DNA of 44,478 nt from Bradyrhizobiaceae bacterium (GCA_947475855.1 CANJPN010000001.1:1-44478); one strand, 5' to 3'; shown: positions 14,219-25,801, counted from the stretch's first letter. The notes: generated by a model not told the origin, from the letters alone. A program made the numbers and translations.

Positions 14219-14426
14219 TGGGAAAGCACCTCCGGAACGACCCCGCCCATTAACCCCGCCCCGCGACCAGAGCAAGGCGCACAGCCCATCTGGCGGCCAC
14301 GACCGGACACCCTGGCATGGAAGCTGCTCTCGTACCTCTCAGCCTGACCCGCAGGCTGAACGCTGTATCCGAATGGCACAGGAGCGGCACGCGCCCATAT
14401 GCCATCCGCCGATTTTGAGAGCCGAC

Positions 14427-15047
14427 ATGAAGAATCGCACAACTCAAGTCATCTACGGTTACTGGAACGAAGTCCGCCAGGGCCGTATGGCTCCGAAACG
14501 GTTCGACATCGAGCCCGCGCGCATCGCCGGCATCCTGGCCGAAACTCTGATCCTCGAGCACGCCCCGGACGGAATGCGCTTCAGGCTCGCGGGAACCCGG
14601 ATAGCCGAACAGTTCGGCGCCGAGCTGAGAGGCATGGATTTCCTCGACATGTGGTCGCCCGACGAGCGCCACGAGCTTCGCCAACAGCTCGATACTCTGC
14701 GCAAACAAGGCGGCGCCTTGGTCTTCGACATCGACGCTCGGACCGCCGGAGACCGCTCCGTCAGCTTCGAAGCGATCCTGCTTCCACTTGTTCATACCCG
14801 TGACGAAGTCGACCGCTATCTCGGTGCGATCTCCTGCGCGACCCCACCGTTCTGGCTGGGCACCGAACCCTTGACGTCCTTGCGTCTCGTCGCGAGTGAA
14901 ATCGTATGGCCAGACGGCCGTCCGCACGCCGTCGCCGAGCACTTTTCACACCCCCCGGCGCTGAACATCGAAGCCTCCAGCCGCATCGTTCGCTTCGACC
15001 GCCGACAGTTCCGCGTGCTCGAAGGCGGCCGCAAGCTCGGCTCCTGA
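14427..15047 (+). CDS. PAS-domain protein (PAS_5/DUF1457-like)
   Basis: The product begins MKNRTTQVIYGYWNEVRQGRMAPKRFDIEP...MRFRLAGTRIAEQFG...G.DFLDMW. This pattern is typical of the alphaproteobacterial single-PAS family that sits next to PilZ/BTLCP genes. Confidence 0.7.
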   Translation: MKNRTTQVIYGYWNEVRQGRMAPKRFDIEPARIAGILAETLILEHAPDGMRFRLAGTRIAEQFGAELRGMDFLDMWSPDERHELRQQLDTLRKQGGALVFDIDARTAGDRSVSFEAILLPLVHTRDEVDRYLGAISCATPPFWLGTEPLTSLRLVASEIVWPDGRPHAVAEHFSHPPALNIEASSRIVRFDRRQFRVLEGGRKLGS

Positions 15048-15219
15048 TCGCGCCTTTCGACATTCGAATGAATTCTCGCCGGGACCTGTCCTGAATCGTT
15101 TCAAAACCACGCAGTCGCTTAGGCTTTCATTAAGTGGTCGCCCGCATACTCCGAGGCATTGAGCACGGTCGGTTTGGCGACCGTTCCCCACTGCCACGCG
15201 ATTATACGGTCGGAAACAA

Positions 15220-15861
15220 ATGGATTCCGTTGCGAAGCGCCCACCTGAGCGCCCGACATTCGGCTTCGGTCCCAGTGCGGCCGCCGACCGCCGGCGCCAT
15301 CGCCGCGTTGCCATCACACTGCTTGGCCGCTTCATGCGCGCCAACAAGCAGGAATTCTCTTGCAAGCTCGTCGACATCTCCGTCGGCGGCGCTGCAATTC
15401 ATACGCCTGTCGAGGTCGATATCGGTGAACGCATTCTTGCGACCTTCGACAATCTAGGCGCTATCGAAGGACATGTTGTGCGTACCTTCGTAGGCGGCTT
15501 TGCCATCGAGCTCCAGGCCACGCAGTACAAGCGGGACAAGCTGGCAGCCCAGATCACCTGGCTGATGAACCGCCACGAGTTGGGCGATGCAGCCGAGGTC
15601 CGCCGTCACGAGCGCATCGCGATCGCCAATTCCAAGAAGGAAACGACGCTGAAGCTCGACGAGGGCGTGACCATCCCGGTCAACATCATCGACTTCTCCA
15701 TGTCCGGCGCCTCGATTGCGACGACAGCGCGTCCACCGCTCGGCCAGCACGTTCAGGTCGGCAAGATCAAAGCCCGCGTCGTCCGCCATCATAACGACGG
15801 CATTGGCGTCGAGTTCATGGCGGTCCAGGAACAGGAAGCCGTGCAGGCAGACCTCACGTGA
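15220..15861 (+). CDS. Tandem PilZ-domain protein (putative c-di-GMP receptor)
   Basis: Two PilZ-like units are visible. The first has RRRHRRV..(N)..DISVGGAAI and the second has EVRRHERI..(N)..DFSMSGASI, matching the RxxxR and D/NxSxxG signatures. Confidence 0.8.
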   Translation: MDSVAKRPPERPTFGFGPSAAADRRRHRRVAITLLGRFMRANKQEFSCKLVDISVGGAAIHTPVEVDIGERILATFDNLGAIEGHVVRTFVGGFAIELQATQYKRDKLAAQITWLMNRHELGDAAEVRRHERIAIANSKKETTLKLDEGVTIPVNIIDFSMSGASIATTARPPLGQHVQVGKIKARVVRHHNDGIGVEFMAVQEQEAVQADLT

Positions 15862-15925
15862 GTAATGGCTTCGAGACCGCAGTGGGTCTTGCGATCATCT
15901 TCGTTGGCCAAGTAGGGGTGGCGTA

Positions 15926-16567
15926 ATGAAGCGGTGTATCTTCGCAGCGGCAGCAATGGCTCAAGCCATGCTTGCCGGAAACCTGAAGGCCGAGCCGGAG
16001 CGCGCGGTCCGCACAGCCGAACCATCGCCGTTCATGCGGATCTACGGTACGTCGCCGCCGCCGTTCGGCTTCGTGCAGTTCTGCGAACGCTGGCCGGGCG
16101 AATGCACCCCCAGCGCCAATCAAGAGAACCGGTTCACAGCCACGCCACAACGCCTGAGCGAGCTCGACGAGGTCAACCGCCGCGTCAATACTCTGATCGC
16201 GCCGGCCACCGATCAGGAACTCTACGGCACCGCCGAGCATTGGACGCTGCCGACCGACCGCGGCGATTGCGAGGACTACGCGCTGCTGAAGCGCCAGCTC
16301 CTGTTGCAACGCGGTTGGCCCTCGAGTGTCTTGCTGATGACGGTCGTGCGCGATGAGCGCGGCGACGGCCACGCCGTTCTGACCGCTCGCACCACGCAAG
16401 GCGACCTGATCCTCGACAACAAGGTCGCGGACATCCGCATCTGGCACAAGACCGGCTATCGCTTCGTGATGCGCCAGTCCTTCGTCGAGCCGCGTTTGTG
16501 GATGTCGCTCGTGCCCGAAGGGAACGCCCGCGCCGGTGCCCTCGCGAGCGCGCCGCCTCGCCGCTGA
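15926..16567 (+). CDS. Bacterial transglutaminase-like cysteine peptidase (BTLCP, LapG family)
   Basis: The product has a signal peptide and then FCERWPGEC, WTLPTDRGDCEDYALLKRQLL (the catalytic Cys context) and DGHAVLTART..GDLILDN (His/Asp). Confidence 0.85.
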   Translation: MKRCIFAAAAMAQAMLAGNLKAEPERAVRTAEPSPFMRIYGTSPPPFGFVQFCERWPGECTPSANQENRFTATPQRLSELDEVNRRVNTLIAPATDQELYGTAEHWTLPTDRGDCEDYALLKRQLLLQRGWPSSVLLMTVVRDERGDGHAVLTARTTQGDLILDNKVADIRIWHKTGYRFVMRQSFVEPRLWMSLVPEGNARAGALASAPPRR

Positions 16568-17155: not shown

Positions 17156-17374
17156 TCAAACCTCGTCGAGATCGATGTCCAGGATCGCCATCTGCAATTG
17201 ATAGCAGACCTCGCCATCTTCATCGTCGAGCGTCAGCGTTCCAATCATGTCGTCGCCGATGAAAACTTCACCCATGTCGGTCTTCTTCGGCGGCATCACC
17301 ACCTTCAGGCCGGGATTGTTGAATCGCTTGCGCAAATAGGTCTGCAACTTCGGCAGGTCTTGCTTCATCGCCAT
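17156..17374 (-). CDS. DUF3126-family small protein
   Basis: The 72-aa product (MAMKQDLPKLQTYLRKRFNNPGLKV...GEVFIGDDMIGTLTLDDEDGEVCY) matches my memory of the conserved alphaproteobacterial DUF3126 family. GAAGGA lies upstream of the ATG. Confidence 0.8.
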   Translation of the reverse strand: MAMKQDLPKLQTYLRKRFNNPGLKVVMPPKKTDMGEVFIGDDMIGTLTLDDEDGEVCYQLQMAILDIDLDEV

Positions 17375-17711
17375 AGGATAGTCCTTCGATCCTAGATCAA
17401 CTCGTTTCCTCGCAGCCAGCTAACAGGCCCGCGCGCCGCGGGCAAGCAGCTTGGACGAGGCTCGACCATGCGTTCGGTGCCCAGCGAGAATGCCACATTT
17501 ACACACGCCCAAACCGCCTTTTCCGGGCTGAAGATGCAGTACCCCCGATAAACCGATAGCCCCCAGGGCGTGACGAACCGAAATTCGGAGACTTGCAACC
17601 GGAAAGTCGACACCGGAAATGCAGCGGGGGCGTCCGTATTGGGCCTCAAAAGCAGTCGAAACGGCCAAATGGGATTGAGCATTCGCAGCTTGAACAACAA
17701 CTCTACACGGT

Positions 17712-17763
17712 TCGATTCCGTAGCCACCAGGGTGCTACGCACCCTGGACCCACAGCTAAAACT
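17712..17763 (-). repeat. Copy A of a perfectly conserved 52-nt non-coding element (U-tract plus 9-bp hairpin), 39 nt downstream of TIR-STAND-FGS gene 1
   Basis: The sequence tcgattccgtagccaccagggtgctacgcaccctggacccacagctaaaact is identical to 21337-21388. It contains the perfect hairpin ccagggtgc-tac-gcaccctgg (17727-17747). The 39 nt between the element and the stop codon are only about 70% identical between the two copies (hand alignment). Confidence 0.85.
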
Positions 17764-17802
17764 CGCGTGCAAGCGCGCAGCGTCTTCGAGAACGTAAGGG
17801 TG

Positions 17803-20631
17803 CTAGGGGGTATGAATTAACGTCCTCGCAACCCGGAAGCCCAAGTTGAGGCCACGGAGGCCCGGAGCGTAGTAGTAGCGCTGCGCCGCGCGGAGAACCT
17901 GCGGAAGATTGAGCCAGGAGCCGCCGCGAAGAAGACGGGAACAGTCTTCATTGTCAGGCGCCGAGCTACCGTCCGTCGGCGCACTATTATAGGTATCGAC
18001 GTAACAGTCCTGGACCCACTCCCATACGTTACCGTGCATGTCATAGAGGCCGAAGCCGTTGGACTTCTTCTTCCCCGCCGGCTGCGTCTTGCTCTCGGAG
18101 TTCGAGTTGAACCATGCGTAATCGCCGAGCAGCGCTTCGTCGTCGCCGAACGACCAACGGCCCTGGTTGCCCGCTCGTGCGGCGTATTCCCATTCGGCCT
18201 CGGTGAGCAACCGATAGGAATGGCCGGTCATTTTTGACAGCCACGCGACATATTCCCGGGCGTCGTTCCAGTTGACGTTAATCACCGGCCGCCGTCCCCG
18301 CGGCCAACCGGAATCGGACGCGACAGTTTTGCAACCTCCTGCCGCTACGCAGGCATCCCACTGGTCGAAGGTAACCTCGTGAATAGAGACCGCCAATGGC
18401 GCCTTGATCGTCACCTTACGCAGCGGCCCCTCGTTGTCGCTGCGGTCCTTCTCGGCGTCGGGTGAGCCCATCGTGAAATCGCCCGCCGGCAGCACGACCA
18501 TGCCGGGGCAATGCCGCGAGTAGTCTGCGTCGGTCTTGGCGCAGTCCCAGAACGGATCGGCTTGCTTTTTGGCCAATGCGGCTTCCGCCGTCACCAGATA
18601 GGGCCGTGCCGTGACGTACTGGAACCACAGCCCGCTCAACTCGCGCTCGTACATCCGCGCGGTGAGGCCCGCGATGACGAGCGCCATCAGCAACACGATC
18701 GAAGCGCTCACGAGCCGCGCCCGGCGCCGGCCTGCAGCCTCCTGCTTCCGGCCGGCCGCCAGATACGCACTCGCCGGCGCCAAAGCGGCGGCGAAGTCGG
18801 GCTTGCCAATCAGATCGAGCGCGCTCTCCAGCCGCGTGCCGCGTCGCACGAAGTCGCCGTGCCGGCCACCGTCTGCCCACTCCTTGGCTTCGCGAAGCAC
18901 ATCGTCGCGCAGCTTCAGCGCGTCCTTCTGCTCCTCCAGCCAGCCATCGATCGGAGGACGTCGCAGCAGCGCCTCGTGCGCCACTTCAAGGGTGTCGCGG
19001 TTCTTTACAAGAAGGCGGTTCTCGACCAGCGCATTGGCCAGCGGCGCCAGCGCGGTCCGGCTGCCACCGACCAGCTCCACGTCTCGCGCCACCAGCCGCT
19101 TGGCGGCGTTTGCCGCCGGGTCCCATGTCGCGAGGCCCGGCACCATGAGCCGCCGCAGGCTGTCGTCGCCGCCGGCCGCACCCGCCGCCTTCTGCGCCTG
19201 TCGCAGCACGCGGGTGACGCAGCCGCCCATGCCGCCGATGTCGTTGTACTGCGCCAGCGTCAGCTCGTGCCCGGCTGCGTGCAGCTTGAACAACTGCGAC
19301 ATCGTAAAGGCCAGCAACGGCAGCGCGTCGGCGCCTGTCGCATCGGCGACGAGTTGGTTGGCCAGCGCCGGCTCGATGGTGAGGCGGCGCACCTGCTTGG
19401 TGTAGACCTCCGCCGGTTTCATGATGACGTCGCGATAGGCGCCGGGCGACAGCGGCGGCAGGTACAGCGGCTCGGGAGCATCGAGCCCGAGTGCGGCCAC
19501 CCGCTGCAACAAAGCCTCCACACTGTCGGCCCGGATCGTGATGAGCACGTAAGGATCGACGCCTTCGGGCGGCGCCTTCAGCAGCGCGGCCAGCACGTTG
19601 AGGAAGCGGTCGCTCTCCTGCGCGTCCTCTGCCGCGAACAGCTCCTCGCCCTGATCGATGGCGATCAGCGGCGCAGGTGGGCGGGCATCAGGCGAGGTCG
19701 CGCGCTGCGTGGCCGTGCAGACGGCCGCCGCCTCCGCCAGGAGCGCGCCGAACGCCATCGCGCTGGCGGCTTCGGTGGCGGCTCCGACCGCTGTGTTGAT
19801 CGAACCCGCCGTCTTGGTCTTACCGAAGCGCGCGAACCACGGCGCGAGCTGGAATCCGAGGCCGTCGGGCCCGGTCAGGATGCCCTGCGCGGGACGCAAA
19901 ATGGCGAGCGGCGCGAAATCGCGGTCGCGTTGCAGGCGCGGCCACAGACCCGCACGCAGGAACGACGACTTGCCGGCACCGGATGCCGCCTGGATCACGA
20001 ACAGGCGAGGTGCGCCGCGACGGCGCACGAGGCGGAGCTTGGTGAGCCCACTCATAATATCGGCCTCACGGCCGAAGAAGATGCCGGCGTCCTCCTCGCC
20101 CAGCGCGGACAGGCCGGGATATGGCTCGGCGTTGGGCTTGTCTTTCGGCGGCCACACGAAGCTGCCCGGCGCGACGCCGAGGTCTTCGAGTCGCGTCTTG
20201 ATCGAGTTGAGCGCGGCCAAGTTGAACTCGACCCGGTGCAGCTTGCCGTCGTGCTCGAACGGCTCCATGCGCTCGGTGGGCTCCGCCGACAGATCGACGA
20301 ACTGTCGCTCGGCGTAGCGAGCGAGACGGGGGTCATCCTTGGTGAGATCGCGCAGGATGGCCGGGATGATAGCCTTGCCGAGCGCCTCGGCCAGCTCCAG
20401 CTCCTTCTGGCATTCGACCGAGGCTATAGAGTCTGGCGAGGCGAGCAGGATGACGGCCTCGCAGGTCGCGTTGGCCTTGCGCAGCGTGTCGCGCCAGCGC
20501 TCGCCGGCACCGATACCGTGCAGGTCGATGAACACGTCGTCCTTGGACCAGCCGTTGGCTTCGAGCCAGCGCTGGAAGGCGAGGGCCTGGACGCTGTCCT
20601 TGCTCGAATGCGAGATGAACAAACGCGGCAA
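17803..20631 (-). CDS. TIR domain / P-loop STAND-type NTPase / single TM helix / FGE-sulfatase-like (SUMF1 fold, non-catalytic) protein, paralogue 1 (942 aa)
   Basis: The TIR domain shows LFISHSSKDS (beta-A) and ASPDSIASVECQKEL (the conserved Glu motif, E77). The NTPase shows Walker A VIQAASGAGKSS (K221, nt 19963-19983), Walker B LIAIDQGEELF, LPLLAF and LEVAHEALLRR helices typical of nSTAND-like NTPases. A TM segment LVSASIVLLMALVIAGLTA (nt 18658-18714) follows RRRAR. The FGE-sulfatase fold (nt 17824-18510) shows RPVINVNW, YRLLTEAEWEYAARAG, GLYDMHGNVWEWVQD, LRGGSW and NLGFRVAR. The gene uses a TTG start with GGGGG upstream. Confidence 0.9.
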   Translation of the reverse strand: MPRLFISHSSKDSVQALAFQRWLEANGWSKDDVFIDLHGIGAGERWRDTLRKANATCEAVILLASPDSIASVECQKELELAEALGKAIIPAILRDLTKDDPRLARYAERQFVDLSAEPTERMEPFEHDGKLHRVEFNLAALNSIKTRLEDLGVAPGSFVWPPKDKPNAEPYPGLSALGEEDAGIFFGREADIMSGLTKLRLVRRRGAPRLFVIQAASGAGKSSFLRAGLWPRLQRDRDFAPLAILRPAQGILTGPDGLGFQLAPWFARFGKTKTAGSINTAVGAATEAASAMAFGALLAEAAAVCTATQRATSPDARPPAPLIAIDQGEELFAAEDAQESDRFLNVLAALLKAPPEGVDPYVLITIRADSVEALLQRVAALGLDAPEPLYLPPLSPGAYRDVIMKPAEVYTKQVRRLTIEPALANQLVADATGADALPLLAFTMSQLFKLHAAGHELTLAQYNDIGGMGGCVTRVLRQAQKAAGAAGGDDSLRRLMVPGLATWDPAANAAKRLVARDVELVGGSRTALAPLANALVENRLLVKNRDTLEVAHEALLRRPPIDGWLEEQKDALKLRDDVLREAKEWADGGRHGDFVRRGTRLESALDLIGKPDFAAALAPASAYLAAGRKQEAAGRRRARLVSASIVLLMALVIAGLTARMYERELSGLWFQYVTARPYLVTAEAALAKKQADPFWDCAKTDADYSRHCPGMVVLPAGDFTMGSPDAEKDRSDNEGPLRKVTIKAPLAVSIHEVTFDQWDACVAAGGCKTVASDSGWPRGRRPVINVNWNDAREYVAWLSKMTGHSYRLLTEAEWEYAARAGNQGRWSFGDDEALLGDYAWFNSNSESKTQPAGKKKSNGFGLYDMHGNVWEWVQDCYVDTYNSAPTDGSSAPDNEDCSRLLRGGSWLNLPQVLRAAQRYYYAPGLRGLNLGFRVARTLIHTP

Positions 20632-20685
20632 AATACGCCCCCGATCCCCCGCCGCCAGAAACGCGGCGGTCGTGCCCGTGTGATC

Positions 20686-20714
20686 AGTCTAGCGTGACTG
20701 TTGCGCCGCTGGAA
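20686..20714 (-). promoter_or_regulatory. Candidate sigma-70-like promoter for paralogue 1 (TTCCAG-N17-TAGACT on the minus strand)
   Basis: The hexamers lie in a roughly 42-nt block that is conserved upstream of both paralogues, while neighbouring leader sequence has diverged. The match to consensus is weak at -35. Confidence 0.2.
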
Positions 20715-20745
20715 GCTCAGGAAGGCAACAGACAAGGCGACAAGC

Positions 20746-21063
20746 TCAGCCGCCGCCCTGGAAGCCACGGGCGCGAGACCGGAACAGGCGTGGGCTGCGG
20801 CGCTCGTGCAGCACGGCGAGCACGTACACGCGACTGTCCTGTGGGACGTAAAGCACGATGTAGGGGAAACGCCGCAATCGGACCCGACGGGTGCCCCGAT
20901 ACAGCGCACGCGGGCGCTCCGGACTTGCGCCGATCCTGGCGAACGCATGGCCCGCCTCCGCGATCATCTCATGGCCAAGCCCGAGTTGACGCGCCTCGTA
21001 CCAGCGGAATGCCTCAGCGAGGTCGGCTTCGGCCTCGGGCTGGACGATGACTTCGGCGGTCAC
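20746..21063 (-). CDS. ParE/RelE-family type II toxin
   Basis: The product (VTAEVIVQPEAEADLAEAFRWYE...RRVRLRRFPYIVLYVPQDSRVYVLAVLHERR) has the ParE/RelE C-terminal pattern. Its GTG start overlaps the antitoxin TGA stop (GTGA at 21060-21063). Confidence 0.8.
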   Translation of the reverse strand: MTAEVIVQPEAEADLAEAFRWYEARQLGLGHEMIAEAGHAFARIGASPERPRALYRGTRRVRLRRFPYIVLYVPQDSRVYVLAVLHERRSPRLFRSRARGFQGGG

Positions 21064-21275
21064 GGCTGGCCGGTGATACGACGGCGGACCTCGTCCCATG
21101 GCGCACCGACAGAGGTGCCGCTGTCGAGGGCGTCGAGCCGCTTGTCGATCTCGTCACGCTGCCAATCTTGGAGCGGCAGCGCGTCGGCATCAGTGTCGAG
21201 CGAATCCCACAGATCCTCGATCAGCTTCAGCCGCTCGGCGACGGGTAGCTTGGTGAGCGTGGTCGTGTCGGTCAT
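21060..21275 (-). CDS. Putative addiction-module antitoxin (TIGR02574-like)
   Basis: The product MTDTTTLTKLPVAERLKLIEDLWDSLDTDADALPLQDWQRDEIDKRLDAL...WDEV shows the characteristic ERL.L...LWDSL motif. It lies immediately upstream of the toxin and is coupled to it. Confidence 0.8.
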   Translation of the reverse strand: MTDTTTLTKLPVAERLKLIEDLWDSLDTDADALPLQDWQRDEIDKRLDALDSGTSVGAPWDEVRRRITGQP

Positions 21276-21336
21276 GACCAAACCATACCACAGATCCAGG
21301 ACTGGCGTCGATCTCGGCATCCGCACCGACCTCGAC

Positions 21337-21388
21337 TCGATTCCGTAGCCACCAGGGTGCTACGCACCCTGGACCCACAGCTAAAACT
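21337..21388 (-). repeat. Copy B of the 52-nt conserved element, 39 nt downstream of TIR-STAND-FGS gene 2
   Basis: This copy is identical to 17712-17763 and sits at the same distance (39 nt) from its stop codon. It lies between the paralogue 2 stop and the antitoxin start. Confidence 0.85.
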
Positions 21389-21427
21389 GGTGTGCGACCC
21401 GGCAAAGTTTGCCAGGACGTAACGGGG

Positions 21428-24337
21428 TTAGGGGGTATGAATTAACGTCCTCGCAACCCGGAAGCCCAAGCTGCTGTTGCGGTAGACCGGAGAGCCGTTG
21501 TTGCGCTGCGCCGCGCGGAGGTCCCGAGGATCGTTGACCCAGGAGCCGCCGCGAAGAACACGGGAACAGCCCTCCTTGTCGGGTACTGCACTACCGTCCG
21601 CGGGCGCATTTTTATAGCTGTTGATGTAGCAATCCTGCACCCACTCGAAGACGTTGCCATGCATATCGTGGAGCCCGAAAGCGTTCGCCGGGTAGCTGCC
21701 GACGGGCGCCGTTTGCGCCTGTTTGTCGTCGCAGTTGCCGATGTCACCGGTGTAACCGCGACGTCTGAATGACTGATCCGCGAGGTTGGCGTGCTTGCAA
21801 ATCTCGGTCGCATCGTTGCCGAACGAGTAGGCTGTCTGGGTGCCGGCCCGTGCGCCATACTCCCATTCGGCCTCGGTCAGCAGCCGGTACTCCTTGCCCG
21901 TCATTCTGGATAGCCAGACGACGTATGACTTCGCCTGATCCCATGACACGTTGATCACGGGCTTCCGGCCCTTGCCGAAGGTTGCGTCGCCGGTCGGCCG
22001 CCCGTCGCAGCCGCGCATCCCGACGCACGCCTCCCACTCGTCCCAGGTCACCTCGAACTTGGCCACCGCGAACGGTTTGGCGATGGTCACTGGGCGAACT
22101 GGGCCTTCGTCGTTGTCGCGTCCAGCCTCGTTGTCCGGCGAGCCCATGCGGAACGAGCCCGCCGGCAGCGCGACCATTTCAGGGCAGACCGTGGCGCACT
22201 CCCGGAACGTCTCGCCGGGCTTCTTCGTGTCGGCCTTGGCGGCCAGCACCTGCTCCCCGACCTTGGCGATGTAGGGTCGCTCCTCGCGGAACTGCCAGAT
22301 CGCGTGATCAATCTCTGCCTTGAAGATGGCGTACTGCGAGACGCCGATGACACCGAGCATAAGCGCGTAGATCGCCGCGCGAACACGGCCCGCCCGGCGC
22401 TGGCCCGCGGTCTCCAGGCGCTTGCAGGCAGCGAGATAGTCCTTCGCCGGCGCCATCGAAGCCGCGAAATCCGCGTTGCGGGCGAGCGCGAGGGCACTCT
22501 CCAGGTGGACGCCGCGGCGGGGCAGGTCATGGACCGGGCTGCCGCTGTCTTTCCAGTCCGTCACCTCACGTCGCACGTCGTCACGCAGTTTGAGAGCGTC
22601 CTGCTGAGCCTCCAGCCACTCCGAGATCGGCTTGCGTCGTAGCAACGCCTCGTGCGCGACCTCCAGTGTTGCCGGGCCTTTGCCGTCGTCGGCTGCACTC
22701 CTGGTCAACAGGCGGGCCTCGACGAGCGCATTGGCGAGTGGCGCAAGGCCAGAACGATCGCCTCCGACGATCTCCGCTTCCTGCGGCACCAGCCGCTTGG
22801 CGGCGTTGGCGGCCGTCTCCCAAGTCGCGAGTCCCGGCACCATCAGGCGGCGCAAGTGCTCCAGCGTTCCGGCCAGCCCGGCCTTTGCCTGTGCCTCTGC
22901 CAGCGCTCGGTCGATCGAGCCGCCGATCCCGCCCATGGCGTCGAATTGCGCGAGCGTCAGCTTGCGGTCGATGGCGTGGGCGTCGAACAGACGCTGGAGC
23001 GTGAACGCCAGCAACGGCAGCGCGTCGGCGCCCCTCGTCTCGTTTACCAGCGCCTGGACCAGCTCAGGCTCGACGTCGAGCCGCGCCACGCGCCGGGCGT
23101 GGACGGCCGCCGGGCGTGTGATGACGTCGCGATAGGCCGTCGGGGACAACGGCGGCAGCGGCAGAGAGAACGGCGTGTCGATGCCGAGTTCCGGCACGCG
23201 GCGGAGCAGAGCGTCGATGCTGTCGGCGCGGATAGTGATCAGGACATAAGGATCGAGCCCGGCCGGCGGCGCGGCGAGCAGCAGGCCCAGCATGGCGAGG
23301 AAGCGGTCGCTCTCGAATTTGTCTTCGGCGGCGAAAAGCTCCTCGCCCTGGTCGACGGCGATGAGCAGCGAGAGACGCCGCGCGCCGTTTGGTGCAGCGC
23401 CGAGGTTGCGCACTTCCAACGCCAGAGCCGCCGCTTCGGCGAGGAGGCCCGCGAGCTTCTTGGCCCCCGCCTCCACACCTTCCGCCATCAGCTCGGCCTG
23501 CATCGAGCCCGCCGACCGCGTCCGCCGGTGGCGAGCGAACCACGCTTCGAGCCCCTTGCCGAGGCCAAACTGGGGGCCGGTGATGATGCCCTTGGCCGGG
23601 CGGACGATGGCGAGCGGAACGAACTCGGACGTGCGACCGAGCTTTGGCCATAGACCGGCGCGGAGGAAGCTCGACTTGCCGGCGCCGGACGCCGCCTGGA
23701 TCACCATCATCCGGGGGCTGCCGCGCTCGCGCATGCGGCGCAACTCGCGCAGCCCGGTCATCACGTCGGCCTCCCGACCGAAGAAGATGGCAGCCGAATC
23801 CTCGCCCAGTGCCTCCAGGCCGGGATACGGCCGCGCATTGGGGCGGTCCTTCGGTGGCCAGGGGAAGCTGTCGGGCGCGTGCCCGCGGTCGATCAGCGTC
23901 GTGTGGATGGCATCGAGCCCTGGCCGGTGGAAGTCGATAAGGTGCAGGCGGCTCTGATGCTGTACCTCGATGCGTTCCGCCTTGGGCTCCGCGGAAAGGT
24001 CCACGATCTGGCGGTCGGCATAGGGCTTGAGCCGCTCGTCGGCGATGGTGATGCCGCGCAGCATGGCGACGATCACATCCTTGCCGTCGTCCTCGGCGCG
24101 GCGCACCTCCCGCCGGCATTCATCGGACGCGAGGCTGTCCGGTGACGCGAGGAACAGCAGCGCGTCGCAGGCGATGTTGGCCCTCACGAGGACCTTCTGC
24201 CATTCCTCGCCCGCGGCAATGCCGTGGAGATCGATGAACACCTCATCCTCACCCCAGCCGTTGGCCATCAGCCAGCGCTGGAACGCGAGGGCCTGGACGC
24301 TGTCCTTGCTGGAATGCGAGATGAACAAACGCGGCAA
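21428..24337 (-). CDS. TIR domain / P-loop STAND-type NTPase / single TM helix / FGE-sulfatase-like protein, paralogue 2 (about 969 aa from the homologous TTG)
   Basis: The architecture matches paralogue 1: LFISHSSKDS, ASPDSLASDECRREV, VIQAASGAGKSS (nt 23669-23689), LIAVDQGEELF, LPLLAF, LEVAHEALLRR, a TM segment AAIYALMLGVIGVSQYAIF (about nt 22322-22381) and an FGE-like domain (about nt 21443-22189) with KPVINVSW, YRLLTEAEWEYGARAG, GLHDMHGNVFEWVQD, LRGGSW and SLGFRVAR. The ORF track extends to the ATG at 24385. I prefer the TTG at 24337 because the sequence around it is conserved with paralogue 1. Confidence 0.9.
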   Translation of the reverse strand: MPRLFISHSSKDSVQALAFQRWLMANGWGEDEVFIDLHGIAAGEEWQKVLVRANIACDALLFLASPDSLASDECRREVRRAEDDGKDVIVAMLRGITIADERLKPYADRQIVDLSAEPKAERIEVQHQSRLHLIDFHRPGLDAIHTTLIDRGHAPDSFPWPPKDRPNARPYPGLEALGEDSAAIFFGREADVMTGLRELRRMRERGSPRMMVIQAASGAGKSSFLRAGLWPKLGRTSEFVPLAIVRPAKGIITGPQFGLGKGLEAWFARHRRTRSAGSMQAELMAEGVEAGAKKLAGLLAEAAALALEVRNLGAAPNGARRLSLLIAVDQGEELFAAEDKFESDRFLAMLGLLLAAPPAGLDPYVLITIRADSIDALLRRVPELGIDTPFSLPLPPLSPTAYRDVITRPAAVHARRVARLDVEPELVQALVNETRGADALPLLAFTLQRLFDAHAIDRKLTLAQFDAMGGIGGSIDRALAEAQAKAGLAGTLEHLRRLMVPGLATWETAANAAKRLVPQEAEIVGGDRSGLAPLANALVEARLLTRSAADDGKGPATLEVAHEALLRRKPISEWLEAQQDALKLRDDVRREVTDWKDSGSPVHDLPRRGVHLESALALARNADFAASMAPAKDYLAACKRLETAGQRRAGRVRAAIYALMLGVIGVSQYAIFKAEIDHAIWQFREERPYIAKVGEQVLAAKADTKKPGETFRECATVCPEMVALPAGSFRMGSPDNEAGRDNDEGPVRPVTIAKPFAVAKFEVTWDEWEACVGMRGCDGRPTGDATFGKGRKPVINVSWDQAKSYVVWLSRMTGKEYRLLTEAEWEYGARAGTQTAYSFGNDATEICKHANLADQSFRRRGYTGDIGNCDDKQAQTAPVGSYPANAFGLHDMHGNVFEWVQDCYINSYKNAPADGSAVPDKEGCSRVLRGGSWVNDPRDLRAAQRNNGSPVYRNSSLGFRVARTLIHTP

Positions 24338-24393
24338 AATACGCCCCCAATCCCGCGCCGCGTGAGGAATGCCGCGAACGCGCACCGCGAGGC

Positions 24394-24422
24394 AGTCTAG
24401 AGTGACTGTGGTGCGGATGGAA
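24394..24422 (-). promoter_or_regulatory. Candidate sigma-70-like promoter for paralogue 2 (TTCCAT-N17-TAGACT on the minus strand)
   Basis: This is the homologous position of the conserved upstream block seen at 20686-20714. Confidence 0.2.
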
Positions 24423-24541
24423 GCTCGGGAAGGCGGCTTAGGAGGGCAATAGCTCTGAAGGACTCACGGCCTAAGATTCGGACGTGGGGAAAAAAGGTTT
24501 GATCCCCCAATCCTGCCGCGCAGATGAACGCACCGGCGCTC

Positions 24542-25366
24542 TCAGCACTCGCAGCCGCCGAGCTGCTGATCCATCGTCCGCGACGGCTCGGGACAGCCGG
24601 AAGGTCCGATCACCTTGGCCGGGACGCCGGCGACCGTCGTGTTCGCCGGCACGTCCGCCAACACGACGCTGCCCGCTGCTATCCGGCTGCACCTGCCGAC
24701 CGTGATATTGCCGAGCACCTTGGCACCGGCTCCGATCATCACGTTTTCGCCGATCTTGGGATGGCGGTCGCCGCCTTCCTTGCCCGTACCGCCCAGCGTC
24801 ACCGAGTGAAGCAGCGAGCAGTTGTCACCGATCGTTGCAGTCTCGCCGACCACGATGCCGGTACCGTGGTCGAACATGATGCCGGATCCGATCTTGGCGG
24901 CCGGATGAATGTCGACGCCGAACATGCGCGATGATTGGCTCTGCAGATAAAGCGCGAAATCCCGCCGGCCCGCCTTGTACAGCACATGCGCGAAGCGGTG
25001 CGTCACGAGCGCATGGAAGCCCTTGAAGTAGAGCAGCGGCTCGATGTAGCGCGTGCACGCGGGATCGCGATCCCGTACGGCGAAAAGATCGGCGCGAAAT
25101 GCCCGGCCCAGATCCGGCGAGGTAGCCAGCACCTCTTCGAAGATCTTGCTGATGAGATGCGCGTCGACGTCGGCGTGATTGAGCCGCTGCGCGAGACGGT
25201 GAGCGACGGCATTCTCGAGCCGGTCGTGGCTCAGCACGGTTGCGAAGATGAACCCGCCGAGCGCCGGTTCGGCTGATATCGCCTCTGCAGCTTCCGCTCG
25301 CAATGCGGCCCAGATGGGATCCACCGCCTGCAGTTTGTGTTCGTTGCGTGCGTTGCTTGTTGGCAT
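24542..25366 (-). CDS. cysE: Serine O-acetyltransferase
   Basis: The N-terminal SATase helical domain shows DPIWAALRAEA and RDPACTRYIEPLLYFKGFHAL. Hexapeptide repeats follow (GVDIHPAAKIGSGIMFDHGTGIVVGETATIGDNCSLLHSVTLGGTG...). I chose the ATG at 25366, giving 274 aa. Confidence 0.9.
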   Translation of the reverse strand: MPTSNARNEHKLQAVDPIWAALRAEAAEAISAEPALGGFIFATVLSHDRLENAVAHRLAQRLNHADVDAHLISKIFEEVLATSPDLGRAFRADLFAVRDRDPACTRYIEPLLYFKGFHALVTHRFAHVLYKAGRRDFALYLQSQSSRMFGVDIHPAAKIGSGIMFDHGTGIVVGETATIGDNCSLLHSVTLGGTGKEGGDRHPKIGENVMIGAGAKVLGNITVGRCSRIAAGSVVLADVPANTTVAGVPAKVIGPSGCPEPSRTMDQQLGGCEC

Positions 25367-25801
25367 GTCACCGTTCCTGCCGGGCCCATCACCGAAGTGT
25401 GCGCCGTGGAAATTCGCACCTGAAGCTGTCTCTTCATGTGGCACCGAACGGTCTGCGTTTCAATTGGAGGTGGGGTGCGGGACGGAATGGCGGTGGCCGT
25501 CTTTGCCGGCTCGCTCCCGAACAAAACCATTCGATCGAACAAATCTTCCACAGGCAAATTCGCCGGCAAAAGGAGCGTCGCCGAAAAGGGGTTTATCCAG
25601 TTGCAACGTGCTGATCTCAAGCCTTTTTCAGGAAATGGAATTCTGCACCTGATTTTTATTCGCAGCGTGGATAACTCCAGAATTGACGCGCTGCAGCAAC
25701 GGTTCCGCCTTGCCTGCAGGAAAGCCCGACATGATAATTAGACCTGCGTGAACGTAGTCACGCGGAACCTCAGCGCCGGTTCTCCGGCAAAGGAGGCTCG
25801 C

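Follow-up and report, generated by a model that had tools for sequence, protein, structure and literature searches.

How a cytoplasmic TIR/STAND switch could be controlled by a sensor lying outside the membrane is the question raised by P1 and P2, two paralogous genes in a 44,478-nt stretch of DNA from a Bradyrhizobiaceae bacterium (GCA_947475855.1, CANJPN010000001.1:1-44478; this whole stretch is referred to as the window). STAND/NLR-type sensors such as Avs and bNACHT are treated in the literature cited here as sensing within the cytoplasm, and STAND proteins linked to diversity-generating retroelements (DGRs) are predicted hypervariable antigen receptors, for which the same literature reports no experimental test. 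We find that P1 and P2 are, as a whole, best explained as a membrane-spanning variant of these predicted DGR-diversified STAND antigen sensors, a reading to which we assign a probability of roughly 0.7.

P1 and P2 join a TIR effector and a STAND switch to an FGE-fold domain

The two proteins share one architecture, in which a TIR domain, an nSTAND1 NTPase module, a predicted transmembrane (TM) helix and a domain with the fold of formylglycine-generating enzyme (FGE) follow one another. Their features are as follows.

17803-20631, minus strand: P1 open reading frame (ORF), 942 aa, with TIR_2, nSTAND1, TM helix and FGE-fold variable domain
20281..20619, minus strand: P1 TIR domain, aa 5-117 (Pfam TIR_2, E 4.7e-17), predicted cytoplasmic effector
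18859..20124, minus strand: P1 nSTAND1 NTPase module, aa 170-591 (PF20703, E 3.7e-61, profile positions 1-377 of 379)
18658..18714, minus strand: P1 predicted TM helix LVSASIVLLMALVIAGLTA, aa 640-658 (Kyte-Doolittle mean 2.47; summed Hessa ΔG −1.6)
17824..18510, minus strand: P1 FGE-fold (C-type-lectin-like) domain, aa 708-936 (Pfam FGE-sulfatase, E 6e-58), predicted periplasmic
21428-24385, minus strand: P2 ORF, paralogue with the architecture of P1 and 58% identity to it
21428-24337, minus strand: likely P2 gene, starting 16 codons inside the ORF, 969 aa
22322..22378, minus strand: P2 predicted TM helix AAIYALMLGVIGVSQYAIF (Kyte-Doolittle mean 1.77; Hessa +2.5)

The internal start of P2 is likely the true one: the protein then begins (M)PRLFISHSS as in P1, and the gene call on contig L001 likewise gives 969 aa. 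The region 17824-18714 corresponds to the C-terminal third of P1, and P2 sits 3.6 kb upstream. The domain matches of P1 recur in P2 (TIR_2, E 2e-12; nSTAND1, E 1e-58; FGE-sulfatase, E 2e-56), and the nSTAND1 profile is covered from position 1 to 376-377 of 379 across both paralogues. Within the switch, the Walker A motif GAGKSS (G218, G220, K221 and S222) and the Walker B residues D326, Q327 and E330 are invariant in 74 aligned relatives. The same alignment shows a conserved S71..C74..E77 motif in the TIR domain, in which E77, the presumed catalytic Glu as in TIR NADases, is nearly invariant. The TIR domain has weak ThsB/SpbK-type matches in PADLOC, NCBIfam and the PDB (SpbK alignment, E 0.008), and the TIR–STAND part finds no sequence match in the PDB. 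An AlphaFold2 (AF2) model of P1 built on the 74-sequence alignment has a mean pLDDT of 88.3.

A subclade that is 64-72% identical to P1 over the STAND–TM–FGE portion (P0012, P0014-P0016, P0025, P0030 and others) carries a PF00211 class-III adenylate/guanylate cyclase instead of the TIR domain, a swap that one would expect if effector, switch and sensor are modular. The domains of conflict systems include nucleotide cyclases as well (PMC7159879).

A conserved helix and paired cysteines predict a sensor outside the cytoplasm

The topology of P1 and P2 was assessed from hydropathy scales, charge bias, Cys statistics, homology, the AF2 model and a control group. The initial annotation had described a single hydrophobic helix following a run of Arg in both paralogues, and its coordinates are reproduced here: the 30 residues N-terminal of the helix contain 7 K/R in P1 (…AAGRRRAR) and also in P2 (…AGQRRAGRVR), and none of the other 19-residue windows of either protein exceeds a Kyte-Doolittle mean of 1.6. 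In the AF2 model, one continuous helix (aa 618-660) extends from the STAND module through the hydrophobic stretch. Of the 120 relatives closest in the database, all but P0007, in which an N-terminal window scores higher, have their best hydrophobic window at the corresponding place (~aa 600-690 in full-length proteins); the flanks typically hold 5-7 K/R in the 15 residues before the helix and 1-3 after it. It is the length and hydrophobicity of the helix that are conserved among these relatives, whereas its sequence is not. Helix and charge bias are present again in 13 of 13 more distant relatives (32-42% identity; labelled Xanthobacteraceae, Caulobacteraceae, Saprospiraceae and others), and all three complete DGR-linked proteins have the helix as in P1 and P2. 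Neither P1 nor P2 has an N-terminal signal peptide. Because the TIR domain and the ATP-dependent STAND module need cytoplasmic NAD+ and ATP, and because a signal peptide is missing, we read the N-terminus as cytoplasmic; conservation of a helix between switch and sensor across a large alphaproteobacterial family in turn argues that the variable domain lies outside the cytoplasm.

The distribution of Cys residues is in line with this topology. After the helix, P1 has 6 Cys (697, 708, 761, 767, 876 and 897) and P2 has 8, so that the even numbers originally pointed out as consistent with disulfides are confirmed. According to the family alignment, those of P1 pair as 697/708, 761/767 and 876/897. 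The post-helix count is even (4, 6, 8 or 10) in 72 of the 74 aligned relatives, while pre-helix counts range from 0 to 9 with no parity. Every aligned relative has C697 and C708, 73 of 74 have C761 and C767, and the optional Cys co-vary in pairs, with both or neither present in 29/44, 14/60 and 7/67 relatives and, for C876 and its partner, in 53/19. By comparison, helix-less TIR_2+FGE or caspase+FGE relatives, a control group defined by having no STAND domain among the listed Pfam hits and with approximate, motif-set domain boundaries, have 41 even and 38 odd counts (anchored family versus controls, Fisher p 1.3e-11). From these sequence patterns, three or four disulfides are predicted in the sensor domain.

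Taken together, the conserved helix, the positive-inside charge, the paired and even C-side Cys, the helix-less control without parity, and the kinship with periplasmic PvdO described below give strong computational support to the N-in/C-out topology that had been proposed, in which the sensor domain would be periplasmic.

Some TIR–nSTAND1 relatives have different, longer C-termini, one of which ends in a WD40-like repeat, and carry a hydrophobic helix at ~aa 660-710, directly after nSTAND1 (L025, L032, L043, L045, L048, L050, L053, L056, L057, L061, L065, L067, L080, L082 and L086). These loci come from Mycobacterium, Acidobacteriota and Alphaproteobacteria. Because the helix is also found in these relatives, membrane-spanning sensing may be a general property of the whole STAND clade, beyond its FGE-fold members.

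The FGE-fold domain lacks defining features of the enzymes it resembles

The closest PDB sequence match of the C-terminal domain is PvdO (5HHA; E 1.5e-53, 42% identity), and structural comparison with Foldseek likewise ranks PvdO first (TM-score 0.84), followed by TvpA (0.70) and FGEs (0.63-0.72). The initial annotation, noting that the RGGS region is free of Cys, concluded that the domain is probably a ligand-binding sensor and not an enzyme. The observation is correct: the RGGS motifs LRGGSWLNLPQVLRAAQR of P1 and LRGGSWVNDPRDLRAAQR of P2 contain no Cys, in alignments to the solved FGEs 6S07, 2Q17 and 6MUJ the GGS-x2-C-x4-C loop is replaced by one that is 3 residues shorter, and neither P1, P2 nor any relative in which the RGGS motif could be located has the Cu-binding Cys pair. 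In the family alignment, Cys is not among the five commonest residues in any column of aa 907-918, after RGGSW. What had been overlooked is the reason, namely that the variable region of a DGR occupies the former active-site loop, as described in the next section.

Three enzyme identities were considered and rejected. FGE identity fails on the two missing Cu(I)-binding Cys and the loop that is 3 residues shorter. An EgtB/OvoA sulfoxide synthase is excluded by an NCBIfam EgtB score of 58-68 bits against a cutoff of 360 and by the lack of a Pfam match in P1 or P2 to DinB_2, which EgtB-type chemistry requires. Finally, the NCBIfam PvdO (dihydropyoverdine dehydrogenase) model is the best match, yet it scores 205 and 246 bits against an equivalog cutoff of 500, and the window contains no pvd genes. 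Additionally, no sulfatase gene was identified among the annotated ORFs of the window.

FGE domains that are 50-57% identical to that of P1 co-occur with Ig, PKD, HYR, dockerin, TonB_C and peptidoglycan-binding domains; this database search was dominated by giant multi-FGE proteins and is informative on extracytoplasmic partner domains only. Close relatives of the domain are also paired with TIR or caspase. The C-terminal domain is most likely an outward-facing, membrane-anchored binding domain and not an enzyme, in agreement with the sensor role proposed at the outset, and the database names "SUMF1/EgtB/PvdO family nonheme iron enzyme" and "formylglycine-generating enzyme" need correction for many members of the family.

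The former active-site loop is a DGR-type variable region

The 3' ends of P1 and P2 have the hallmarks of DGR targets, including a variable region (VR) that is homologous to a DGR template repeat (TR) and a downstream hairpin.

17825..17944, minus strand: P1 VR, 120 nt homologous to a DGR TR
17845-17913, minus strand: P1 variable codons, aa 907-929
21450..21569, minus strand: P2 VR, homologous to the TR of metagenome contig L087
17727..17747, minus strand: hairpin CCAGGGTGC-GTA-GCACCCTGG after P1, 56 nt past the stop, a DGR target-site hairpin (folded)
21352..21372, minus strand: hairpin after P2, 56 nt past the stop, identical to the P1 hairpin

Over the last 300 nt, which include ~90 nt past the stop, P1 and P2 are 81% identical, compared with 58% overall. 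Their last 41 codons differ at 18 sites in codon positions 1 or 2 and at 4 in position 3, and third-position divergence is 0.10 per site in these codons versus 0.49 in the rest of the gene. After the RGGSW motif, an essentially invariant framework (R902, G903, G904, S905, W906, P910, L913, R914, A916, R918, R926, G931, F932, R933 and R936), all codons of which are identical between P1 and P2 with synonymous sites included, is interspersed with hypervariable positions (907-909, 911-912, 917, 919-925 and 927-929). The commonest residues at the latter, N, S, Y, D, G, A, V, F and I, form the set that adenine mutagenesis can reach from AAC codons.

Relatives were collected with one genome per species, which returned 80 loci; the full-length ones are mostly from alphaproteobacterial metagenome-assembled genomes labelled Hyphomicrobiaceae, Rhodomicrobiaceae and Xanthobacteraceae. 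In four of them (L007, L008, L010 and L016), a DGR-type reverse transcriptase (RT) motif (IGNLTSQ…YVDD) lies directly downstream of the gene. A TR is present in three of these four loci, where VR/TR mismatches fall at TR adenines in 14 of 14, 11 of 12 and 16 of 17 cases. Scanning metagenomes with the VR framework yielded two contigs, L087 and L088 (JGI Ga0247844_1041734 and Ga0247836_1049069). L087 contains, in order, an FGE-domain target, a 120-nt TR, bAvd (E 1e-18) and RVT_1 (E 8e-15). The TR that matches the P1 and P2 VRs reads in part as follows.

TR matched to the P1 and P2 VRs: …TGGAACAACAATCCACAGAACCTC…AACAACAACACTCCGGACAACCGCAACAACAACTTGGGC…

Compared with this TR, the P2 VR is changed at 13 sites, each of them a TR adenine, and at none of the 92 non-adenine sites (Fisher p 4e-10). 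The P1 VR is changed at 22 sites, of which 18 are TR adenines (Fisher p 6e-11); these statistics treat sites as independent. At 15 variable positions in the two proteins, 30 of 30 residues fall within the sets allowed by the L087 TR, whose theoretical repertoire amounts to 2.2e15 sequences. VR/TR identity ends at GGGTTGCGAG, with G next in the VRs and C next in the TR; the sequence that follows GGGTTGCGAG is GACGTTAATTC in the VRs and CACGATTATCG in the TR. This stop is consistent with the boundary of an initiation of mutagenic homology (IMH) element. Gene conversion alone was considered for the similarity of the P1 and P2 3' ends and rejected, since comparison with an independent TR shows the differences to be specific to adenines. 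Judged from these comparisons, P1 and P2 are bona fide DGR targets written from one template. The four non-adenine changes in the P1 VR suggest that it may be older than the P2 VR.

The hairpin is likewise found after the VR in the DGR-linked loci L007, L008 and L010, with compensatory changes in the stem.

L010: …GC-GCA-GC…
L008: CTGGGGGGC-GAA-GCCCCCCAG
L007: GGCGC-GAA-GCGCC

In the 20 relatives checked, the hairpin follows all three DGR-linked genes and the gene of L005 and is absent after the other 16. Since the P1 and P2 VRs derive from the same template and both hairpins are kept, the two genes would be remote targets, served in trans by a DGR that lies in another part of the genome or has recently been lost.

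L005 (protein P0028) has a stem with a GC-GCA-GC hairpin ~55 nt past the stop and no RT within 10 kb, and is probably another remote DGR target. On L088, a different and shorter FGE-domain target carries the P2-type VR cassette and is followed by an antitoxin–ParE pair with 95% nucleotide identity to the window (window 20736-21567 compared). The place that P1 takes in the window is then occupied by an unrelated TIR_2 protein. Over 1167 nt, L087 and L088 are 100% identical, and they part exactly at the end of the ~231-nt VR and hairpin cassette (…GGCTACGGAATCGA), an edge that resembles a breakpoint of recombination or structural variation.

Comparison with known STAND, FGE-fold and TIR systems

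Comparative genomics has characterised effector–STAND(nSTAND1)–FGS proteins, many of them linked to DGRs, as "intracellular invader-sensing lectin-like" systems (Kaur et al. 2021, PMC8195603). In a later study, Doré et al. 2024 reported that DGR clade 5D typically has two STAND–C-type lectin (CLec) targets, some with TIR, with diversification in trans and mixed predicted localisations (PMC10907252). Kibby et al. regarded FGS as an "antigen receptor type" sensor and noted that some TM-bearing NACHTs may sense periplasmic signals (bioRxiv 10.1101/2022.07.19.500537), and according to Roux et al. most cellular DGR targets are anchored in the membrane and bind extracellular substrates (PMC8144416). 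FGE-sulfatase sensors are among the STANDs listed in a 2026 survey, which mentions neither membranes nor DGRs (PMC13581612). The initial annotation called control from outside the membrane an unusual sensing mode for a STAND immune protein. The idea has precedents on paper: FGS/CLec STAND sensors, their DGR diversification and possible periplasmic sensing had already been predicted, although no experimental test is reported there (PMC8195603, PMC10907252, bioRxiv 10.1101/2022.07.19.500537).

P1 and P2 resemble the DGR-diversified STAND–FGS/CLec systems in combining an N-terminal effector (TIR), nSTAND1 and a single C-terminal CLec domain of the FGE fold with a VR; these systems also often have two targets per DGR, may have remote trans targets and are predicted to sense invaders. 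As in the conflict systems delineated by Kaur et al. 2021, intact Walker A and B motifs, an N-terminal effector and a C-terminal FGS occur together. Unlike in those systems, a helix lies between STAND and CLec in P1 and P2, and the TM helix, positive-inside charge and paired Cys predict a periplasmic sensor instead of the intracellular FGS described there; the mixed localisations of Doré et al. were predicted for architectures other than that of P1 and P2. The helix between switch and sensor is the trait that distinguishes P1 and P2 among DGR-linked STAND sensors. They also differ in their Hyphomicrobiales-type alphaproteobacterial hosts and in that the window contains no RT or TR. With DGR targets in general, P1 and P2 share a 3'-end VR with adenine-biased mismatches, the CLec/FGE fold, and an IMH-like boundary with a hairpin; none of RT, Avd and TR is present in the 44-kb window, and an RT lies beside L007, L008, L010, L016 and L087.

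Several proteins without a STAND module illuminate the sensor domain. TvpA of Treponema denticola (2Y3C), the second-best match by sequence and by structure, and Mtd of Bordetella phage BPP-1 have the same FGE/CLec fold with a VR at the extreme C-terminus as ligand-binding face; the former is a surface protein and the latter a phage tail-fibre protein, both lacking a signalling module, whereas the variable domain of P1 and P2 is coupled to TIR–STAND across the predicted membrane helix. Pseudomonas PvdO (5HHA), which bears a Sec signal peptide and is described as a periplasmic enzyme (PMC9305348), also has the FGE fold without the FGE catalytic Cys, and it shares the Cys aligned with C708, C876 and C897. 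However, it is a soluble Sec-exported protein of the pvdMNO operon that is required for pyoverdine chromophore oxidation, whereas P1 and P2 are predicted membrane-tethered fusions scoring less than half of the family cutoff. In the 5HHA alignment, the C-terminus of PvdO itself (RSGNRNNAAPSDRGDWIGFRVAR) looks similar to the DGR VR scaffold, down to the Asn-rich positions, which hints that PvdO may have descended from, or may share ancestry with, DGR-type variable domains. FGE itself (SUMF1/FGE) shares the fold and the RGGS framework and differs in the two Cu(I)-binding Cys and the loop length noted above. The FGE-like type VI immunity proteins of the Tsi3 kind use a non-catalytic FGE fold to bind a foreign protein (bioRxiv 10.1101/2021.05.21.445229) and thus provide a precedent for this fold as a pure protein binder, but Tsi3 neutralises an effector by binding and has neither a signalling module nor a DGR.

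On the signalling side, the predicted layout of P1 and P2, with one TM helix joining a sensor on the outside to a TIR domain on the inside, is like that of Toll-like receptors (TLRs), and NLR, Avs and bNACHT proteins share a STAND NTPase switch with modular effector and sensor. P1 and P2 belong to neither group, differing from TLRs and Avs/bNACHT in that their TIR is N-terminal (reversed order), their sensor is a CLec domain instead of LRR or TPR, and their switch belongs to the nSTAND1 clade.

A proposed mechanism and the evidence that bears on it

Building on the computed architecture, the loss of the FGE catalytic Cys, the VR/TR adenine signature, the conserved helix and the Cys pairing, we propose that P1 and P2 would be single-pass inner-membrane receptors with the TIR domain and the nSTAND1 ATPase in the cytoplasm and the FGE-fold domain, stabilised by three or four disulfides, in the periplasm. 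The Cys loop of FGE is replaced by the scaffold RGGSW-xxxPxxLRAAxR-xxxxxxxR-xxx-LGFRVAR, whose x positions a DGR, presumably still active at P1 and P2, would rewrite: error-prone reverse transcription of the TR would mutate adenines, and the cDNA would replace the 3' end of the gene. A foreign periplasmic molecule would bind the variable surface; proteins that phages use for entry or ejection, injected toxins and glycans are candidates. Since a membrane would keep the sensor from folding back onto the ATPase, activation would probably proceed by ligand-driven clustering, upon which the cytoplasmic STAND modules would oligomerise in an ATP-dependent manner and the TIR domains would assemble into an NAD+-cleaving or signal-producing state that stops the infected cell.

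If the predicted topology and DGR dependence are true, bacteria would be able to monitor the periplasm through a receptor that can be diversified and that acts on a TIR effector, and P1 and P2 would offer a tractable system for how a STAND switch is triggered across a membrane. The locus is a compact test case, with two paralogous receptors, a topology prediction, a 23-codon predicted binding site, a template sequence and intact hairpins. A more specific version, in which P1 and P2 are outside-in single-pass NLRs whose periplasmic surface of ~10^15 possible sequences is rewritten in trans on two paralogues and wired through the membrane to a STAND ATPase and a TIR domain for death or signalling, is more tentative, and we rate it at somewhat below an even chance. 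If true, it would combine the layout of a TLR with antibody-like somatic diversification and allow invaders to be detected before they reach the cytoplasm.

A number of observations weigh against the reading of P1 and P2 as membrane-spanning DGR-diversified sensors. The topology, for all its computational support, is a prediction, and the P2 helix is only moderate in hydrophobicity. Within the window, a pattern search allowing up to 3 mismatches found only the two VRs and no TR, the DGR-RT motif scan and a Pfam scan of ~30 longer ORFs found no RT, and no Avd was detected in its 44 kb. The matching TR comes from another metagenome, so a cognate DGR within this genome is conjectural, and the four non-adenine changes in the P1 VR hint at drift since its last rewriting. 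Most full-length relatives have neither a nearby RT nor the hairpin, so the family also works without a DGR; for those on long contigs (P0006, P0028 and P0098), the 10 kb around the gene contain no RT. Three independent assemblies of the locus are identical save one single-nucleotide polymorphism (SNP) in ParE and thus show no sign of ongoing diversification. Finally, PADLOC recognises the TIR part only, and besides the toxin-antitoxin module no known defence genes flank P1 and P2.

Several of these points would equally be expected if P1 and P2 were fossil targets, that is, if the DGR were gone from the genome and the VRs were now static, germline-encoded specificities like those of many DGR-less relatives. 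We regard this as unlikely, albeit the strongest of the alternatives. It accounts for the absence of RT and TR from 44 kb, the identity of the VRs in three assemblies, the 4 non-adenine substitutions in the P1 VR, and the lack of an RT within 10 kb in most relatives, with the hairpin missing from 15 of the 16 RT-less ones checked. However, the P2 VR equals the L087 TR at all 92 non-adenine sites, both hairpins and the common 3' ends are intact and identical, and trans-acting DGRs with remote targets are documented (PMC10907252). The L088 cassette with its toxin-antitoxin pair at 95% identity, moreover, comes from a population that also holds an intact DGR. The three assemblies are clonal (L001 and L002 show 0 and 1 SNP) and are therefore uninformative on current DGR activity. 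The fossil reading is compatible with everything except current diversification.

It is improbable that P1 and P2 are non-immune transmembrane receptors for self, kin or environmental ligands, with the TIR or cyclase output serving as a second messenger and not in abortive infection. Such a role would suit the cyclase-bearing subclade and a neighbourhood of housekeeping genes with no defence island, and one study proposes that cyanobacterial DGR targets tune regulatory pathways (PMC7517822). However, TIR and STAND with interchangeable N-terminal effectors are a hallmark of conflict systems (PMC8195603), to which nucleotide cyclases also contribute domains (PMC7159879), close relatives of the sensor domain are paired with TIR or caspase, and the genes sit in a high-GC insert with a ParE toxin-antitoxin module.

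That the hydrophobic segment does not span a membrane, and that the FGE-fold domain is an intracellular sensor, is very unlikely. FGS sensors are called intracellular in PMC8195603, the P2 helix is of moderate hydrophobicity, and the cis target of the L087 DGR has no obvious helix in its available part. Such a location would leave unexplained a hydrophobicity and length conserved without sequence conservation, the asymmetric charge, the even and co-varying Cys that occur after the helix only and lose parity in helix-less relatives, and the periplasmic or surface location of the domain's nearest relatives.

We give least credit, and very little, to a PvdO-like periplasmic oxidoreductase or other enzyme that regulates, or is regulated by, STAND/TIR: the 42% identity and TM-score of 0.84 to PvdO, the best-matching NCBI PvdO model and the NCBI name "nonheme iron enzyme" on some relatives are set against 205-246 bits versus a cutoff of 500, the absence of pvd genes nearby, the inactivity and lack of a detectable cofactor of PvdO purified from E. 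coli (PMC6206403), and a hypervariable, DGR-written loop in the region of the FGE active site, which is incompatible with a fixed one.

Genomic neighbourhood

Two further genes lie between P1 and P2.

21060-21326, minus strand: Unstab_antitox antitoxin (Pfam, E 1.3e-19)
20746-21099, minus strand: ParE toxin (Pfam, E 1.9e-10)

Any functional tie of this pair to the sensors is conjectural. P1, ParE/antitoxin and P2 form a high-GC insert of ~7 kb (17375-24541; GC 67-69% versus 62% around it) flanked by DUF3126 (17156-17374) and cysE (24542-25444). The annotated flanking genes are ordinary chromosomal ones (recG, DUF3126, a hexapeptide transferase, cysE, metH, MTHFR and TctC), and the window contains no tRNA genes or Rfam families. 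The first ~40 codons of P1 and P2 are 85% alike and the ~60 nt upstream 75% alike, which is unusually high and suggests either that the promoter was copied along in a tandem duplication or that gene conversion acted at the two ends of the genes. Beyond the insert, at 14373-16567, lies a trio of PAS_5, PilZ and BTLCP (transglutaminase-like cysteine protease) genes that is unrelated to P1 and P2.

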